Virus record (IMG/VR): IMGVR_UViG_3300035494_000066
DNA length: 64,000 bases
Reading direction: 5' to 3' (one strand)
DNA from: a virus
Taxonomy: Duplodnaviria > Heunggongvirae > Uroviricota > Caudoviricetes
The notes under the pieces are model-generated. The model saw only the letters and a program-made list of their open reading frames with translations, was not told the origin of the DNA and searched no databases. Positions within the stretch are counted from its first letter, which is position 1. Every line of letters starts with the position of its first letter. Shown piece after piece: positions 21,164 through 58,040 of the stretch. The position numbers and the translations under genes are program-made.

Positions 21164-21562
21164 TTAGACTATTTCGTTGCTTGTGCTTTTTCCAATCCGG
21201 ATATGCTTTTTACCAAAAAGCCGCACAGCATGGTAAACCCAAATCTGTCGAATCTTTAACATCCCGTCGGTGTCACACCAGCGGATCATTTCTTTATTAC
21301 ATTCTTTAAACCACTGTTTATCTAGTAGCCCGAGCCTAATAAGCTGGAATAGTGCATCATGTACTGCGCTCCCTCGCATAAACGACTTAGTGTCAACTGC
21401 ACCAGAAGCACCATCCCAGGCGTAACCTGCTTGTAACGTCAACAAACCAGACGGTGTTAACGTTATCCATTCCGTTGATATTAAAGTATCTGGTTTGATT
21501 TGAGTTTGGAAAGTACAAGTTTCGTCTATCTTGTACTTCCACTTAATTTTAGTGTATTTCAT
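21164..21562 (-). CDS. DUF1353-like protein
   Basis: GYAWDGAS, GSAVHDAL, ...AVRLFG. Confidence 0.75.
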   Translation of the reverse strand: MKYTKIKWKYKIDETCTFQTQIKPDTLISTEWITLTPSGLLTLQAGYAWDGASGAVDTKSFMRGSAVHDALFQLIRLGLLDKQWFKECNKEMIRWCDTDGMLKIRQIWVYHAVRLFGKKHIRIGKSTSNEIV

Positions 21563-21623
21563 AGTAAACTACCTTTTTGTAGTTTACTTATCTCGTGCTA
21601 CTTATGTAGATTACCAACAGGAT

Positions 21624-22712
21624 TTATACTTTACAGTTGTCGCAGTCGTCATCGTCGTCAATTGTATCTGTTGGTAAGTCGGGCTGATCTACTACTTTTA
21701 CTTCGCCCTGGCCGTCGAATGTGTTATTATAGTATAGCTGCTTGCCGCCGAACTTATAGAACATAACAACATGTTTTAACAGCTCGCTCATTGGAATTTT
21801 TTCGTCTTCGTAGTGCTCGGGGTTATAACTAGTATTCACGCTTATACCCTGGTCGACGTGCTTCTGTAACACTGCGCAGATTTTCAAATACCCTTCTGGG
21901 CTTTTTTGATCCCATAGTAGATCGTACTTGTTCTTAAGCTTTCTGTATTCGGGAACAACTTGTCGCAGCTGTCCGTCTTTGCTTGCTTTAACAGACACGA
22001 AGCTTCTAGGTGGCTCTATGCCGTTTGTACTGTTGCTAATCTGACTAGACGTCTCACTCGGCATAAGTGCCATCAGCGTCGAATTTCGGATTCCGTGCTC
22101 TTTTAAGTCTGAGCGCAAAGCAGGCCATGGCATCCGTTCCACATGCGGAACAAGCTCGTCAACATCTTTCTTGTACGTCATGTTGGGTGTCACGCCTAGA
22201 CTATATTTTGTTTGATTAGATAGCGGACATGCGCCTTTTTCCTTTGCAAGATCGTTACTAGCTTTAATTAGATAGTAACTCCATGCTTCAGCCCATTCGT
22301 CGATCAAAGCAAGACCTTCCGGAGTAATGTCCTGGTAGTTCAAGCCGTTCTTAGCTAGCCAGTATGCAAAGTTAATAATCCCAGCGCCTAGCGGACGGCG
22401 ATTCATAGTAGCATGTTTTGCTGCTAGCACAGGGTACTCTTGGTAATCTAGTAGTTCATCTAGCGCCCGTACAATCAAGTCTGCTAATCGCTCAAAGTCG
22501 TGTTTAGACTTAACTACGCCCCAGTTAGTAGCAGCTAACGTACATAACGCAATCTCCCCGTCGGGGTCATGTAGATCGTTTAACGGCTTAGTAGGAAGGT
22601 CGATCTCTGCACAATTATGCACTAGCACATCATTTGCATAAAAGTTGTGATTGCCTGCCACCGTAATGTCGTATACTTCTTCTTTGTCTTTTAATTTTGT
22701 AATTCTTAGCAT
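21624..22712 (-). CDS. nrdA: NrdA C-terminal fragment preceded by a 33-aa split-intein C-half
   Basis: Start ATG 22712 with SD GAGGA; MLRI...VYDITV...NFYANDVLVHN/CAEI then NrdA (LCTL, MPSETSSQISNSTNGIEP, DQGISVN, KQLYY, CDNCKV). Confidence 0.95.
   Translation of the reverse strand: MLRITKLKDKEEVYDITVAGNHNFYANDVLVHNCAEIDLPTKPLNDLHDPDGEIALCTLAATNWGVVKSKHDFERLADLIVRALDELLDYQEYPVLAAKHATMNRRPLGAGIINFAYWLAKNGLNYQDITPEGLALIDEWAEAWSYYLIKASNDLAKEKGACPLSNQTKYSLGVTPNMTYKKDVDELVPHVERMPWPALRSDLKEHGIRNSTLMALMPSETSSQISNSTNGIEPPRSFVSVKASKDGQLRQVVPEYRKLKNKYDLLWDQKSPEGYLKICAVLQKHVDQGISVNTSYNPEHYEDEKIPMSELLKHVVMFYKFGGKQLYYNNTFDGQGEVKVVDQPDLPTDTIDDDDDCDNCKV
22614..22712 (-). mobile_element. split intein IntC of NrdA (33 aa)
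   Basis: Block F VYDI, block G HN followed by extein Cys+1. Confidence 0.93.
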
Positions 22713-23692
22713 AGTTTTCCTCTTACCCACCCCTCTGGGATAGGTTCGTTTTTTGGCCACGTCTTGTTCGTGACTCCGTTGTTAATTGTGCACTTATTCT
22801 GTTGTGCTTCTGCTAGTTTTTTTCTGTGTTCGGTGCTTCTGTAGTAAGGATTATATTTTACCTCAAATCCAACTTTTTTACTTGCATATATAACAAACTC
22901 ATCAATGCAACCAAATCGGTTTTTTATTATCGTACTAGCGTTTATTTTTTTCTTAAATTTGCTCATGACGTATTCTTTCAAAGCAGTATTAAACGGCTTA
23001 AACAAAAACATACCGCCTTCGACACAAACATCCATATTGTCTTTAAAAAAATCTAATAGGAATTCTTGTGTTGCAAATTCTTTATAGTTGTTATTCGATT
23101 TACCGAAAGACGGCTTCCTATTTTTTAACTCAGATTCTGATGCCTTTCGACCTGCTGTTATGTGCACCCATTCGCCTGATTTTACCTTAGGGTGATTAAC
23201 CGACACTACCCCTATAGATTTTCCAGTGCTTGCGTCCTTAGCTGGCATTGTTCCTTTTCTTGCATTCGATATAGACTTACGGCCTTCTGCTGTTTGCCAA
23301 CCATGTATATGTCTAAATTCGCTGCTATTTTGCCGGATCCATTTATAGCCATTGAGTATCGGTTTTGTTAACCTCAATTTAGTTACTTTGTCTATGTGCT
23401 GTCTATTCTTAAGTCCGTTTAACACATAACGAACAGCTAACATATCACAACGGGTTCCAAACGCTTTATACCTTAATTTATGCACAAAAACATGCTCTTC
23501 CGGAAGTAACATAACCAAATTTTCTGGTGTGTCTTCGCCGCCTAACGATTTAGGGACAATGTGGTGCATTTCAGTATATAGTTTTGTTTTGCTAAGCCTA
23601 AGGTCATTTGAATTTCTTAGTTTAATACGATCTATAGGTTTTGTCGACTTGCAATAATCAATGAATGTTTTGTGTAATTTTATATAATCCAT
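22706..23692 (-). CDS. free-standing HNH homing endonuclease (MobE-like N-terminal HNH)
   Basis: EMHHIVPKSLGGEDTPENLVMLLPEEHVFVH; sits between the nrdA halves. Confidence 0.9.
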   Translation of the reverse strand: MDYIKLHKTFIDYCKSTKPIDRIKLRNSNDLRLSKTKLYTEMHHIVPKSLGGEDTPENLVMLLPEEHVFVHKLRYKAFGTRCDMLAVRYVLNGLKNRQHIDKVTKLRLTKPILNGYKWIRQNSSEFRHIHGWQTAEGRKSISNARKGTMPAKDASTGKSIGVVSVNHPKVKSGEWVHITAGRKASESELKNRKPSFGKSNNNYKEFATQEFLLDFFKDNMDVCVEGGMFLFKPFNTALKEYVMSKFKKKINASTIIKNRFGCIDEFVIYASKKVGFEVKYNPYYRSTEHRKKLAEAQQNKCTINNGVTNKTWPKNEPIPEGWVRGKLC

Positions 23693-23701
23693 AGTAAGTT
23701 A

Positions 23702-23739
23702 ATCTCTGTACACAGTTATTTATCGTTGTGTACAGAGAT
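23702..23739 (-). promoter_or_regulatory. 13-bp perfect hairpin with late promoter ATAAATA in its loop, just upstream of the HNH start
   Basis: ATCTCTGTACACA-acgataaataac-TGTGTACAGAGAT. Confidence 0.8.
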
Positions 23740-23747
23740 ACAACTAC

Positions 23748-25382
23748 TTAAGCGATTTTCAAAACATCATCTTCGCGCAAGTCTTTAGCGCACACATACC
23801 CGCGGTTTTCAGTGTATACCTTGTGATCCGGTGTACACACCAAACGTTTGCCTGTGTCTTCGTCGACGATTTCGAGCAGTTCTGCAGACGGTGATGTTTT
23901 TGCAAATGCTTCGATTTCTTTGTACTCGTCCGCTCCGGTGTCAGTGTTATAAGACTTAACTAATACAGTTTCGTGTTTTACCATCAACGCGGCTAAGTCT
24001 TCAATAGCAACAGTATACTCATTGCCATCCACTTTAACATCAATGTTTGTATCAGCAGTAACACACAAATTCGACTGGCGGATCGGAGCAACTGATTCAA
24101 TAAATGCACCATGTGTGTTTGCGTGATCAACATTTTGCAAATAAATCCGGCCAGTGTCCTTGCGTTCGGTTAAGTATGCTTGGAATAAGTCAATAGCTTT
24201 TACTGTTTTTTTCCGGATATCCGGATTCTTTTCAGCTGCTTCGTAGATCTCTTTAAATTTAGCCTGATCTGCAAAAAACGCATCATACAGCCCCGGGATA
24301 TCTGACGGGCTGAACAGTGTGATGTTCCCACCTGTTAACAAGCGCTCATACATTAGCTTATTAAACTGAACACCGTAATCAAGTTTGCGGACTCGGTTAT
24401 CTTCTGTTCCTTTGTTGTTCTTTAGTACAATCAAGTCTTCAGCTTCTAAGTGCCAAATCGGAAAATACAACGTAGCAGCGCCGCCGCGTACACCGCCTTG
24501 AGAGCAACTCTTTACTGCAGTCTGGAAGTGCTTGTAAAACGGAATTACCCCGGTGTGATACGCATCACCCTTCCGAATCGGACTTCCTATTGCCCGGATA
24601 GCACCGGCACCGATGCCAATACCTGCTTTCTGACTAACGTATTTTACGATCGCAGCCGACGTTGCGTTAATAGAATCCAGACTGTCTGCAGTTTCAATTA
24701 GTACACACGAGCTAAACTGACGTTGCGGAGTACGAGCACCTGCCATGATCGGAGTTGGCATGCTAATCTCAAAATTCGACATTGCGTCATAAAAATCTTT
24801 TACATACTTCAGTCGTGTTTCAGCTGGGTACTTTGAGAAGAGCGTAGCTGCAATTAGAATGTATGCGACTTGCGGAGTTTCGAAGATTTCACCGGAAGCG
24901 CGATTCTGTACCAAGTACTTCCCGCGGAATTGCTCCATTGCAACATACGTTAGGTTTTCATCGCGATCGTGTTTGATAAACTTCTCAATTTGATCCCACT
25001 CTGCTTCAGTATAATCGCTTAGCAGACTACTGTCGTACCAGCCGGCAGCAACGTTCTTTTTAACAATGTCAAAAATATGAGGCGGTGTAAAAGATCGATA
25101 AATGCTTTTGCGCAAATGATAATTAATCAAGCGTCCAGCTGGGTATTGATAATTAGGAGTATCTTCCGAAATTAAGTCAGCTGCAGACTTAATTAATGTT
25201 TCCTGGATTTCAGCACTTGTTATTCCGTCATAAAACTGGATATGACTTTTAATTTCGATTTCACTAGGACTTACACCCGTGATGCCCTCACATGCATATA
25301 TTACAACCCGGTGAATCTTTTCTAGGTTTAAGTCTTCCCGCGACTTACTGCGTTTTACAATTTGAATTTGCTTCGGTGTCAT
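23748..25382 (-). CDS. nrdA: NrdA N-terminal fragment (ATP cone) ending in a 105-aa split-intein N-half
   Basis: ATP cone, PTPIMAG, QFSSCVLI, SQKAGIG, CSQGGVRGGA, RQSNL/CVTADT...CTPDH...; start 25382 has SD GAGG. Confidence 0.95.
   Translation of the reverse strand: MTPKQIQIVKRSKSREDLNLEKIHRVVIYACEGITGVSPSEIEIKSHIQFYDGITSAEIQETLIKSAADLISEDTPNYQYPAGRLINYHLRKSIYRSFTPPHIFDIVKKNVAAGWYDSSLLSDYTEAEWDQIEKFIKHDRDENLTYVAMEQFRGKYLVQNRASGEIFETPQVAYILIAATLFSKYPAETRLKYVKDFYDAMSNFEISMPTPIMAGARTPQRQFSSCVLIETADSLDSINATSAAIVKYVSQKAGIGIGAGAIRAIGSPIRKGDAYHTGVIPFYKHFQTAVKSCSQGGVRGGAATLYFPIWHLEAEDLIVLKNNKGTEDNRVRKLDYGVQFNKLMYERLLTGGNITLFSPSDIPGLYDAFFADQAKFKEIYEAAEKNPDIRKKTVKAIDLFQAYLTERKDTGRIYLQNVDHANTHGAFIESVAPIRQSNLCVTADTNIDVKVDGNEYTVAIEDLAALMVKHETVLVKSYNTDTGADEYKEIEAFAKTSPSAELLEIVDEDTGKRLVCTPDHKVYTENRGYVCAKDLREDDVLKIA
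23751..24065 (-). mobile_element. split intein IntN of NrdA (105 aa)
   Basis: Cys1, block B CTPDH, NRGYV.A.DL tail, then stop. Confidence 0.93.
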
Positions 25383-25406
25383 TGATTTCCTCAAAAAAAC
25401 TAAAAA

Positions 25407-25850
25407 TTAGTGTGTCAAACAGCTGAAATAGCTAGGAGTGTATTCGTTGCACACTATAATATTTGGTGTTGCTGCTTTAGACTCTATTACTTCCCCAGAT
25501 ACAAGGTTGAGCAACAATTCGTCAACCTGGACAATCAACTTAAGCTCGTTAGAGTCTCTTTCTCTAATAGATAATAACTTTAGAGTATTATACTGTTTGT
25601 GTTGCAAAAGAGCAAGAGTGTAGAACATACCAAGTCCAACACTAACCGGATCGTATACACCGTCTGCTAAAAGCTGCCACGGATCTGGCCAATTCTCAGT
25701 GAAGTCGGCGGAGTAGTACTGATTGCATTGTGGGGCTTTTTCCCACAATGCAACTATAGTTAGAATTTGTTCTTGTAACTCAATATTTTCAATCGAATTT
25801 CGTATCTTATGAAATTCAAGTAGTCTTTCAGTAACGCTTAATCCAAACAT
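25407..25850 (-). CDS. conserved hypothetical protein
   Basis: 147 aa; W..AP...WPDPWQL..D..Y...LGM.YTL pattern. Confidence 0.7.
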   Translation of the reverse strand: MFGLSVTERLLEFHKIRNSIENIELQEQILTIVALWEKAPQCNQYYSADFTENWPDPWQLLADGVYDPVSVGLGMFYTLALLQHKQYNTLKLLSIRERDSNELKLIVQVDELLLNLVSGEVIESKAATPNIIVCNEYTPSYFSCLTH

Positions 25851-54999: not shown

Positions 55000-56073
55000 T
55001 CAAATCATTATAAACGGCATCGGTTCTACATAATCGTCGTCTAGGCCGTCTGCCAGAACTGTGTCAAACTCAGGGTCAAAACGCTTTAATTCTAAACACA
55101 TTCTAACAACCAAAATAGTAGACATTACCAAATCGTCCTTCTCGCCTGGTTTAGCTGCGTACGAACTTCCTACAGCAACAAAGTTTTTAATCTCGGATAT
55201 CAACATCTTAGAGTTTAAATTCATGATATCATTTTCAACCCAGGTTTTAAGTTTGCTGCATGCGTTTAACTTCGTTTTGTTAGTAGTATTGAACCCTCGA
55301 CGAAACCGGCGGCCGGATCCGGGTTTCTTTGTTTCGCTTAAGAAAATGCCCGGGATATTTTCTTCTCCGATTTCTTCGATTGTAATGAGAGCAGCTTCGC
55401 CTAATGTGTTATTCTCAACACTGTACCAAATATTAGTCGGCTCGCCTGTGATATCTAAAATGTAACGGTTGATTCCTGCTAAGATACTAATTTGTTTCGG
55501 TATAGGAGTCCGGTTGTTACACCATTCTGCTACCTGAATCATCGTCGGTAACTCGTACACTTGAATTGCAGCATTGTCGCCGCCGGTTCCTAAACTAGGG
55601 TCTAAGCCCACTGCATACGTGCGACCTTTTTCTGGTTTTTTAAACCACCGGACTTGACCAGTTCTAAACACTGGTTCTACTGCTTCTAGAGCTGCTATTT
55701 TAGTAGGCGATATAAGGGTTTCGTCAAAGATGATCGGCTCGCAGTTCGAAACTAAAACACCATTGGCATAAAATCTATGATCTTTGCCCGCATTAACGAT
55801 ATCGTATACTTTCCCTTTGCCTAGTTCAACAATGTTTAATAGTGCTACAGGGCCCAGACTAGACTGAACTATATCACCCAATTTTAAATCCTGCGCAGGA
55901 ACTTTGGCTAAATTGTTTACGTAAATCTCGTGATCGTGCGTGCACTCGACCCATAAGTTGTACTCAAACTCTAACCGTAACCCAGTCTGGCTTCCTTTCT
56001 CTACTATACCATCAAACGATTCATAACCAGCAGCCGTTAAAATCTTATATCCTTTTGTATTTTTCTTAAACAT
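55000..56073 (-). CDS. terL: terminase large subunit C-terminal (nuclease) fragment preceded by a 110-aa split-intein C-half
   Basis: ...CTHDH...VYDIVN...FYANGVLVSN/CEPIIFDETL; RNase H-like GLDPSLG, ENN, DDLVM. Confidence 0.92.
   Translation of the reverse strand: MFKKNTKGYKILTAAGYESFDGIVEKGSQTGLRLEFEYNLWVECTHDHEIYVNNLAKVPAQDLKLGDIVQSSLGPVALLNIVELGKGKVYDIVNAGKDHRFYANGVLVSNCEPIIFDETLISPTKIAALEAVEPVFRTGQVRWFKKPEKGRTYAVGLDPSLGTGGDNAAIQVYELPTMIQVAEWCNNRTPIPKQISILAGINRYILDITGEPTNIWYSVENNTLGEAALITIEEIGEENIPGIFLSETKKPGSGRRFRRGFNTTNKTKLNACSKLKTWVENDIMNLNSKMLISEIKNFVAVGSSYAAKPGEKDDLVMSTILVVRMCLELKRFDPEFDTVLADGLDDDYVEPMPFIMI
55744..56073 (-). mobile_element. atypical split intein IntC of TerL (110 aa)
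   Basis: Contains block B TxxH, block F and terminal Asn before Cys+1; penultimate Ser. Confidence 0.9.
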
Positions 56074-57083
56074 TATTAATATCTCTTAAAATTTCTAAAG
56101 TCTTGTCATCTTTAAATAACCAGACTTCGTATTCATAGCCTGCATCTAAAACAGCTTGCCATTTACGAAGATTGTTTGTTAATCTGTTTTCGTACCCAGG
56201 CCGTTGTTTGGCATCCCACCACCACTGTGCTTTAACTTCGATAATCTTATTTTTATGCGGGATATAGATGTCTGGGTAATACTTTGCTCGGCGACTGTTT
56301 GCTTCTTTATTAATATAGTCAAACACCGGAATGTTATATTCAGATATTCTATCATCAACTACTAACTCAGTCTCTGCATACCCTTGCTCTAACAACATAG
56401 CAATGACTTTATCTTCATAGCCTCGCACATGCACAATATCACCCGAAGGCAATACAAATTCGCGACCTATCGAATTTGACTTTGCTGACTTTGCCCTGAC
56501 TTCCGGCTTCATTAATGCATTCTCTACGCCAAATTTTTCCATACATGTTTCGCGACGCTTATCTACAATTGCACCAATCTCATCTGTAGTCTTATTCTGC
56601 CAGGTTGCTGATGTTTTTCCTGGATTAGAATAATTACTATGACCGTATTTTTTTTAATTTAGTTGCCGATGCCTCTGCTTTAAACTCTTCGGTTTGTGTA
56701 GCAAGCATACCGTACTTTGCAATCTGTGTTGCTTTCGACTTTGCTACTTGCTCTGCAACTTCTTCCTTTGTTCGACTGTATGCAGCTTTCTTCTTATTAA
56801 TCAAGTCCTGCAACACTTGCTCTTCTGTCCAAGACTGCTTCGTTACTGATACATTCTTACCAACACACTTCGGACTACCGCACGACTTAGCATACGATTC
56901 ATCTTTTTGATAGAATGTTAACGGCTTTGTACATGCACAGACAGGCGTTACGCCAGTTATATATGTTTCATAATAATCTTTATACGTTAAACCATGAGTA
57001 CGCAAATGACGTGTAAATTGGCCATTCTTTCTACAATATTGCTTATTATCTATCTTTGATATTACATAAAATTTAGTATTCAT
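56066..57083 (-). pseudogene. Zn-finger + KYG-repeat + PD-(D/E)xK putative homing endonuclease broken by one extra A in an A8 run (56648-56655)
   Basis: Removing one A gives ...TKLKKYGHSNYSNPGK...ETCMEKFGVEN...YYPDIYIP...IIEVK, 338 aa. Confidence 0.75.
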
Positions 57084-57107
57084 TTCTATACGTCTCGTTG
57101 AAATCGC

Positions 57108-57113
57108 TATTTA
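57108..57113 (-). promoter_or_regulatory. late promoter core TAAATA between terL-N and the endonuclease
   Basis: Lies in the 36-nt spacer. Confidence 0.65.
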
Positions 57114-57119
57114 CTAAAA

Positions 57120-58040
57120 TCATTTATCCATCAAATTATACAACTCGCCGATTGTGATTGTTATTTCGTTATTAAATTCGTCTAAGATCGTTACATTATT
57201 GTCGGTGTACAAACAATCCATCTCGCGACGGAATCGCTCGTCGCCGATTCGGCTGCGCTCTTCGTTTGCCCACTGCTCGTCTCGCTCTGGATGCTCGTAC
57301 CATAACGCCTTATACGCTTTAAATCCATTCTGTCCGACTTCTGTTTCGTTACCAAACTCGTCGAATGTCTTATTTGCACCCAGCCACAGCTCCCAGAACT
57401 GATCCTCGTCTGAGTTTGGTGTGCTAGTTATTATAGCTTTACCGCCTGTAGCAAGTGTAGGCGATATGGACGTCCAAAATTCTTTAGCAATAGTGTTTCG
57501 TACGAACGCAAATTCGTCAGTGTATAGTAACGAAATAGACATCCCGCGGCCGGTGTTTTCTGTTGTGGCTTGTGCTACAATTCGGCTTCCGTTATCAAAC
57601 TCAATACTGCCTTTGTTGTAACTTACTACACCGGCACGTATATGATCAGGGCATGACTCGTACGCGTATCGGATACGCTGCATGATCTCTTGCGCACCCG
57701 AATACTTGTGCGCTGCAATTAAGATAGTGCTATCCGGAATAAACATAGCATACCACAGTAAGTAACCTGCAGCAGTTGTAGTCTTGCCGAGCTGTCGCGA
57801 CAGCAAGTTGATACTAAACCGGTACTTGTGATAGTTGTCTACTAGTCCGCGTTGGTAGCCATACGGCTCGTAGAGCATCTTACCTCTAGTAGGGTGTTGT
57901 ATGTAGAAGTAATTTTCCAGAAAATACGAAGGGCCAAAACATTCATCAGCGCACCTTGCAAATTCTAACATCTGCTCCCGGGAGAATTCTTGCGGCTTGT
58001 GGGCTCGTTTGATTAAGACGCCATCTAATGATTTTGACAT
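57120..58040 (-). CDS. terL: terminase large subunit N-terminal (ATPase) fragment ending in a 31-aa split-intein N-half
   Basis: YQ, SRQLGKTT Walker A, LLYTDEFAF Walker B, TSTPN, FRREMD/CLYTDNN...IGELYNLMDK stop. Confidence 0.93.
   Translation of the reverse strand: MSKSLDGVLIKRAHKPQEFSREQMLEFARCADECFGPSYFLENYFYIQHPTRGKMLYEPYGYQRGLVDNYHKYRFSINLLSRQLGKTTTAAGYLLWYAMFIPDSTILIAAHKYSGAQEIMQRIRYAYESCPDHIRAGVVSYNKGSIEFDNGSRIVAQATTENTGRGMSISLLYTDEFAFVRNTIAKEFWTSISPTLATGGKAIITSTPNSDEDQFWELWLGANKTFDEFGNETEVGQNGFKAYKALWYEHPERDEQWANEERSRIGDERFRREMDCLYTDNNVTILDEFNNEITITIGELYNLMDK
57123..57215 (-). mobile_element. atypical short IntN of TerL (31 aa)
   Basis: Cys1...V.I......I.IGELY block-A pattern, then stop. 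Confidence 0.85.

Follow-up and report, generated by a model that had tools for sequence, protein, structure and literature searches.

Fractured nrdA genes were described by Dassa et al. (2009) in GOS metagenomes, where seven loci (NrdA-1 to NrdA-7) carry an insertion immediately N-terminal of the thiyl radical active site of the ribonucleotide reductase (RNR) large subunit (PMC2677866). At these loci a split intein divides a class Ia nrdA into two genes on the same strand, with its N-terminal half (IntN) at the end of the first gene and its C-terminal half (IntC) at the start of the second, and a free-standing endonuclease gene lies between the two. A hairpin with a TATAAATA-like element precedes the endonuclease start, and the 3' end of the endonuclease gene overlaps the start of IntC; a capacity of HNH endonucleases to fracture genes was suggested only (PMC2677866). 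Here we describe an nrdA locus with a split intein and an HNH gene in the virus record IMGVR_UViG_3300035494_000066 (Caudoviricetes; 302,518 bases, 85% complete), of which one 64,000-nt stretch, the window, was analysed; all parts of the fractured nrdA are on its minus strand. From its sequence features we read the locus as a fractured nrdA whose halves are joined by trans-splicing and which harbours a mobile gene for an HNH endonuclease, with a probability of about 0.85.

Each sequence-level feature of the arrangement of Dassa et al. was found in the window, and the locus is a further example of the fractured genes described since 2009, with the HNH family of the nuclease as the only difference (the GOS nrdA loci have GIY-YIG or Vsr-like endonucleases). 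The source also differs, since the GOS loci are short metagenome fragments resembling cyanophage genes, whereas the window belongs to the 302-kb record of an uncultured phage. The original prediction, made from the letters of the window alone, had presented the locus as a candidate new and fast trans-splicing pair. A split-intein nrdA at the same site was already reported in 2009 (PMC2677866), and what is left of the novelty is the nuclease family; no description of an HNH-type fractured gene was found in the literature that could be searched.

An HNH gene also splits nrdA in the Aeromonas phage Aeh1 (nrdA-a/mobE/nrdA-b), where mobE overlaps nrdA-b and is translated under the control of a hairpin and a late promoter (Friedrich et al. 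2007; Crona et al. 2011, PMC3045599). In contrast to the window, Aeh1 has no intein, its NrdA is broken about ten residues downstream of NLCIEI, with Cys431 and Glu433 retained on NrdA-a, and the pieces assemble non-covalently via charged tails (PMC3045599). The window locus is not a split of this intein-less type, as its break precedes the equivalent of Cys439 and it carries an intein. Among the Aeh1 proteins only MobE matches the HNH protein of the window (34% over 71 aa), and the match covers the nuclease motif only, with HHIVPK...N...H aligned. Crona et al. suggested that the tails of the Aeh1 pieces are remnants of an intein, which was unsupported here (0.3-2.5 bits against the intein profile, with about half of 500 shuffles scoring as well).

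Two further systems are close to the window. The split intein NrdJ-1 (PDB 8UBS, 9OMB), counted by Pinto et al. (2020) among the exceptionally fast trans-splicing inteins, is likewise an RNR active-site intein and has its split point near ...DDxLxxA as in the window, but its host is a class II RNR, it is inserted one residue downstream, after the radical Cys, and it shares about 40% identity with IntN. The cultured Yersinia phage vB_YenM_TG1 (KP202158, genes 233-231; locus L001), a 162-kb T4-like phage, carries an insertion at the same site (KQSNL/C...VHN/CAEI, with slashes marking the splice junctions), including an IntN 35% identical to that of the window, a 33-aa IntC and an HNH protein matching at 40% over 302 aa; the HNH gene overlaps IntC there too, and a hairpin has TATAAATA in its loop. 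Its genes are annotated as two "alpha subunit" genes and an "HNH homing endonuclease", and the intein is not mentioned.

Organization of the fractured nrdA locus

In the window nrdA is present as two same-strand open reading frames (ORFs) in the same order, the products of which jointly cover the whole of NrdA. The first ORF (25382..23748; 544 aa) is best started at the ATG at 25382, which is preceded at a distance of 5 nt by a Shine-Dalgarno sequence, GAGGA (25392-25388); the TTG at 25394, the start given in the ORF list, lies 5' of this sequence. The ORF comprises an N-extein of 439 aa (24066..25382), with the ATP-cone, the all-alpha domain and the first part of the barrel and with RQSNL at its C-terminus, and an IntN of 105 aa (23751..24065), with Cys1 in block A (CVTADT) and TPDH in block B, followed by a stop codon (23748-23750). 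A spacer of 55 nt (23693..23747), which contains a hairpin (23702..23739) with a perfect 13-bp stem and GATAAATAA in its loop, separates this stop from the start of the HNH gene (22706..23692; 328 aa, with the HNH motif at about residues 39-71). The second nrdA cistron has its own Shine-Dalgarno sequence, AAGAGGA (22718..22724), located within the 3' end of the HNH gene and 5 nt before the ATG at 22712, so placed that the HNH stop and this ATG overlap in the 7 nt ATGCTAA (22706-22712). It encodes an IntC of 33 aa (22614..22712; block F VYDITV, block G VLVHN) and a C-extein of 329 aa plus stop (21624..22613) that begins with CAEI.

This layout (NrdA-N with IntN, 55-nt spacer, 328-aa HNH ORF, 33-aa IntC) had been proposed in the original prediction, and reading of the sequence confirmed every coordinate, including the GAGGA and ATG that start IntC. 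The reading frame is the same for both nrdA halves and differs from that of the HNH ORF. The whole insert, i.e., IntN, spacer, HNH gene and IntC, amounts to 1,452 bp (22614-24065), and its spacer, HNH gene and IntC have a G+C content of 0.33-0.365 (HNH gene 0.365) as against 0.43-0.455 in the exteins and IntN. The HNH ORF was assigned to the Pfam family HNH (E 8.9e-7) and to phrog_655, homing endonuclease (2.6e-23), and is present in one copy in the phage record. The three cistrons are probably co-transcribed, with each nrdA half translated from a strong ribosome-binding site of its own. This organization is best explained by an intact natural split intein accompanied by a free-standing gene for an HNH homing endonuclease, a reading supported by the comparisons that follow.

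Intein halves, exteins and predicted trans-splicing

The two intein halves matched complementary ends of one domain, the Pfam domain Intein_splicing (IntN, residues 455-542 of the first ORF product, at profile positions 7-93, and IntC at positions 125-155). All residues of a class 1 intein are present (C1, T78-P-D-H81, the block F Asp of VYDITV, H32-N33 and C+1), and in an alignment with ten related inteins of 35-58% identity the equivalents of Cys1, TxxH, the block F Asp, HN and Cys+1 are kept. The net charge is -11 for IntN and +3 for the first ten residues of IntC, the same polarity as in GOS NrdA-2 and NrdJ-1, where an acidic IntN is paired with a basic IntC start (PMC2677866). Comparison with known split inteins, which had been proposed as a check, returned GOS NrdJ-1 as the best solved-structure match to IntN (8UBS, E 2.1e-13, residues 19-105), and by sequence no other solved structure was related to it. 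In a predicted complex of IntN and IntC the ipSAE interface score was 0.92 (0.00 for the best of 3 controls), contacts agreed 100% between runs and the partner confidence (pLDDT) was 91; among solved complexes this mark was attained in 51 of 78, and among mismatched pairs in 2 of 108.

The exteins together form a class Ia NrdA. In the N-terminal half Pfam identified the ATP-cone, Ribonuc_red_lgN and positions 1-213 of Ribonuc_red_lgC, and the C-terminal half continued the RNR barrel profile at positions 212-522, with the sequence CAEIDLPT directly after the intein. In a phmmer search against solved structures the C-extein aligned with residues 438-760 of Escherichia coli R1 (4R1R, E 1.8e-111). 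In this alignment Cys+1 of the intein corresponds to Cys439 and Glu+3 to Glu441, as had been claimed for the thiyl-radical cysteine from the sequence motif, while RQSNL of the N-extein supplies the equivalent of Asn437. Equivalents of Cys225, Asn437, Cys439, Glu441, Cys462, Tyr730/731 and the C-terminal Cys pair are all present, and the NrdA motifs SSCVLIE, LCTLAA, LYYNN and CDNC were read in the translations. An active unspliced enzyme seems unlikely, because Asn437 and Cys439/Glu441 would reside on separate chains with the HINT domain between them.

The half-proteins would associate via their intein halves, which would jointly form one HINT domain. Splicing in trans would then proceed by the N-S acyl shift at Cys1, trans-thioesterification to Cys+1 (the future Cys439), cyclisation of Asn33 and the final S-N shift, and would yield an NrdA of 768 aa and about 86 kDa with the native NLCAEI finger loop and the predicted junction peptide ...RQSNLCAEIDLPTK. 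Acting as a homing endonuclease, the HNH protein would spread this selfish cassette to nrdA alleles that are uninterrupted when two phages infect the same cell.

Genes for NrdB and a glutaredoxin-like protein were found near the fractured nrdA, and no other gene for an RNR large subunit or NrdD was found in the 302,518-base, 85% complete record. The original prediction had held that deoxynucleotide (dNTP) supply depends on splicing. That the fractured gene is the sole RNR large-subunit gene found in the incomplete record agrees with this claim, but the claim left the host enzyme aside; we infer that dNTP synthesis encoded by the phage would depend on splicing, with the host enzyme still remaining.

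Insertion into an otherwise uninterrupted gene

As a comparison for empty sites we used the 80 viral contigs whose N-extein is most like that of the window (72-76% identity). The insert is absent from all 80; in each of them the match to the N-extein ends at residue 439 and that to the C-extein begins with residue 1 at the base that follows (gap of 0 nt), and in one contig (L090) the sequence across the junction is IRQSNLCAEIDLPTKPLNDL, identical to the product expected from splicing. Because all 80 relatives join the exteins without a gap, the segment 22614-24065 is, as judged from these alignments, an extra, sporadic and codon-precise insertion. Among cultured phages a pair of a filled and an empty site is available, as TG1 carries the cassette and its relative phiR1-RT (HE956709, 145317-147476) has one uninterrupted nrdA with 97.3% identity in the exteins. 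This pair could be used directly for experiments on homing and trans-splicing.

The assembly of the locus was compared with that of another read set, the Logan assembly of run SRR11791835, which is 100% identical over 7,387 bases and in which the same three ORFs were called; a protein identical to the 544-aa N-terminal half is encoded on seven contigs. Megablast of the locus against phage records gave short matches to cyanophage nrdA only and no close DNA relative. The layout of the window (nrdA-N with IntN, HNH gene, IntC with nrdA-C) was found in at least six other loci (all four of the HNH homologues whose contigs were inspected, L012 and TG1), with overlaps of 4-17 nt between nuclease gene and IntC, and 21 homologous clusters of the HNH protein were identified at 29-53% identity.

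Hairpin and expression of the endonuclease gene

The hairpin in the spacer is predicted at -25 kcal/mol (z -5.8; none of 200 shuffles was as stable), and the extended pairing reaches the region of the HNH start codon. Equivalent hairpins precede the nuclease gene in seven related loci. They are strong in four of them (TG1, L020, L021 and KP13-7, none of 200 shuffles being as stable in these) and weaker at L011, L019 and L009. In most of these loci the loop is (T/G/A)ATAAATA-like, with the exact TATAAATA in TG1 and L021, and a Shine-Dalgarno sequence of the endonuclease gene is visible in the 3' arm of the hairpin in TG1, L020 and L011. No further copy of the hairpin arm, considered as a repeat, was found elsewhere in the window.

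For Aeh1 mobE and the GOS loci, the ribosome site is hidden in transcripts that read through the hairpin and becomes accessible in late transcripts with a start inside it (PMC2677866). By analogy, the HNH protein of the window is probably made late and at a low level, because the start of its gene is buried in the hairpin and the loop carries a late-promoter-like GATAAATA. That the phage uses such late promoters is weakly supported. On the coding strand 5 of 10 cases of the relaxed motif ATAAATA are within 60 nt upstream of a start, and 7% of positions qualify. One of the relaxed-motif cases, GATAAATA, precedes the start of terL by about 40 nt.

Alternative explanations

One alternative is that the intein halves act as non-covalent docking domains and that NrdA is a two-chain enzyme without splicing, comparable to the tailed pieces of Aeh1. 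The two-piece NrdA of Aeh1 is indeed fully active, and tight binding of the intein halves is what the complex model predicts. However, docking would not need the splicing residues, all of which are kept across relatives at 35-58% identity, and in the unspliced complex Leu438 and Cys439 would be kept apart by a HINT domain of 138 aa, located in the finger loop in the middle of the barrel. The Aeh1 break, by comparison, lies about ten residues downstream of NLCIEI and its tails give no intein signal, and we regard docking without splicing as very improbable. An equally low probability is given to the view that nrdA has been inactivated by invasion of the endonuclease gene and is dead, the phage relying on the host reductase. 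In its favour, the annotation of the Campylobacter phage CPt10 lists the equivalent locus as a pseudogene, and such nrdA genes were viewed as degenerating in one survey. A dead gene is at odds with two full-length open frames that keep the equivalents of Cys225, Asn437, Cys439, Glu441, Cys462, the YY pair and the C-terminal CxxC, each behind a strong Shine-Dalgarno sequence, with nrdB and the glutaredoxin-like gene still nearby, and with the same layout and intact splicing residues in many diverged phages. Least probable of all is an assembly or sequencing artefact that would conceal a contiguous intein with an in-frame HNH domain. Although inteins with internal HNH domains exist, the HNH ORF here is in a frame different from that of both halves and has its own start behind the IntN stop and the 55-nt spacer, IntC has its own Shine-Dalgarno sequence and ATG, and two assembly pipelines gave the identical sequence; a frame error cannot explain a three-cistron order shared by at least six other diverged loci.

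Several results nevertheless weigh against parts of the trans-splicing fractured gene as we read it. The complex model may score well by its likeness to solved split-intein complexes, or by memory of them, and would then reflect likeness and not binding. The second assembly, being 100% identical, may derive from the same or a sister sample. The HNH gene is preceded by a weak Shine-Dalgarno-like AGAGA only. Scans for sigma-70 promoters and intrinsic terminators across 21400-25700 stayed at chance level, the exact TATAAATA occurs 3 times in the window as against 5.07 expected and so shows no enrichment, and the late-promoter interpretation relies on a relaxed motif and small counts.

Relatives of the intein and its three states

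Relatives of the intein were collected by a word-indexed search and look-ups of contigs, and they occur in three states: as split inteins that flank a GIY-YIG gene (L009, L011 and the Klebsiella phage KP13-7, which is cultured), as a split intein that flanks an HNH gene (L012), and as a contiguous mini-intein of 147 aa (L014). The contiguous form occupies the same Cys439 site and belongs to the same family (50% identity to IntN and a near-identical IntC segment), but it is a single polypeptide with a linker of about ten residues where the window has the stop, the HNH gene and the new start. In the alignment the split point of all split forms falls in this linker. The IntC of the HNH-split L012 (MITIEYLEEEIPVYDITVKDNHNF...) is almost identical to the corresponding segment of L014, which is contiguous and from another phage (LEIEYLEEEIPVYDITVEDNHNF...), and split and unsplit states are therefore close relatives. 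The three states support the model of 2009 in which a free-standing endonuclease gene invades the linker of an intein.

In a small tree of the inteins the six HNH-associated sequences were not grouped, and the approximately unbiased (AU) test rejected their grouping (p 0.0013; the alignment is short and branches are long), which suggests that endonuclease genes were exchanged, or captured more than once, on the intein scaffold. A dedicated Mob-like HNH lineage may have colonised the linker of the nrdA Cys439 mini-intein, being interchangeable there with GIY-YIG genes while the same hairpin-with-late-promoter control was kept; this proposal is tentative, and we consider it somewhat doubtful. 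If true, TG1 and phiR1-RT would allow a test of intein capture and splitting by free-standing endonucleases, and the window would offer a new NrdJ-1-like fast splicing pair.

Two adjacent integration points were observed, i.e., SNL/C...HN/CxEI (window, L001, L009, L012 and L019-L021) and SNLC/C...HN/CEI (L011, L002 and L003), the second being one codon later with residue 440 as the +1 Cys. The first is used by all six HNH loci and the second by two of the three GIY-YIG loci. Both points offer a Cys, because most uninterrupted relatives read NLCCEI.

An IntN profile built from five sequences was run against 1.84 billion cluster representatives and gave 2,954 matches at E <= 0.001 (525 at E <= 1e-10). 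Among the best 150 proteins, 118 end within 12 residues of the IntN end (mostly 1-2 residues), and at least 85 of these 118 show an RNR-type ...NL/C junction. Split RNR inteins of this family are thus abundant in metagenomes, since 118 of the best 150 proteins end at IntN. In protein engineering, the natural split inteins related to NrdJ-1 are prized as tools, and the pair of the window and its relatives are new candidate pairs. For genome annotation, two "nrdA" genes with an "HNH endonuclease" in a phage genome should be read as one spliced enzyme instead of a pseudogene; in TG1, KP13-7 and CPt10 the split intein is unannotated.

Other fractured genes in the same phage and in other phages

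In the same phage record a family B DNA polymerase gene is present in at least three pieces (G000:C1:197500-203000; L008). One break, located in the YGDTDS motif, carries a cysteine-less split intein that has Ser1 and Thr+1 (YGD/SVTGDS ... LVHN/TDS), and its halves enclose an ORF of 320 aa in which a Vsr-like motif, ...EFNGDYWH..., is present; the upstream break contains a 565-aa ORF with DUF723 repeats and shows no intein signal. The large terminase also appears to be split (window 55000-58040, minus strand), with the T4-type Terminase_6N ATPase domain in the ORF at 57120-58040, DUF7487 at 56066-56542 and an ORF without Pfam match at 55000-56073. Several essential functions of the phage may depend on protein splicing, i.e., nrdA, the DNA polymerase and possibly the terminase.

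In the cultured jumbo phage KP13-7 (L002; OP617745, 30877-36407) nrdA is in four pieces, arranged as piece 1, an HNH_3 ORF, piece 2 with IntN, a GIY-YIG ORF, IntC with piece 3, a 323-aa ORF without Pfam match, and piece 4; most ORFs of this region are annotated as hypothetical proteins. In CPt10 (L003; FN667789, 117773-121840) the nrdA annotated as "pseudogene" is "disrupted by" two CDSs, and a homologous split intein (TNLC/CLAGDT ... CVHN/CEIS) was found around both. To judge from these sequence features, the CPt10 nrdA is probably functional and not degenerate. Further downstream, the same gene carries a second, contiguous mini-intein (...AGN/CISEDH ... SHN/SSKPS).

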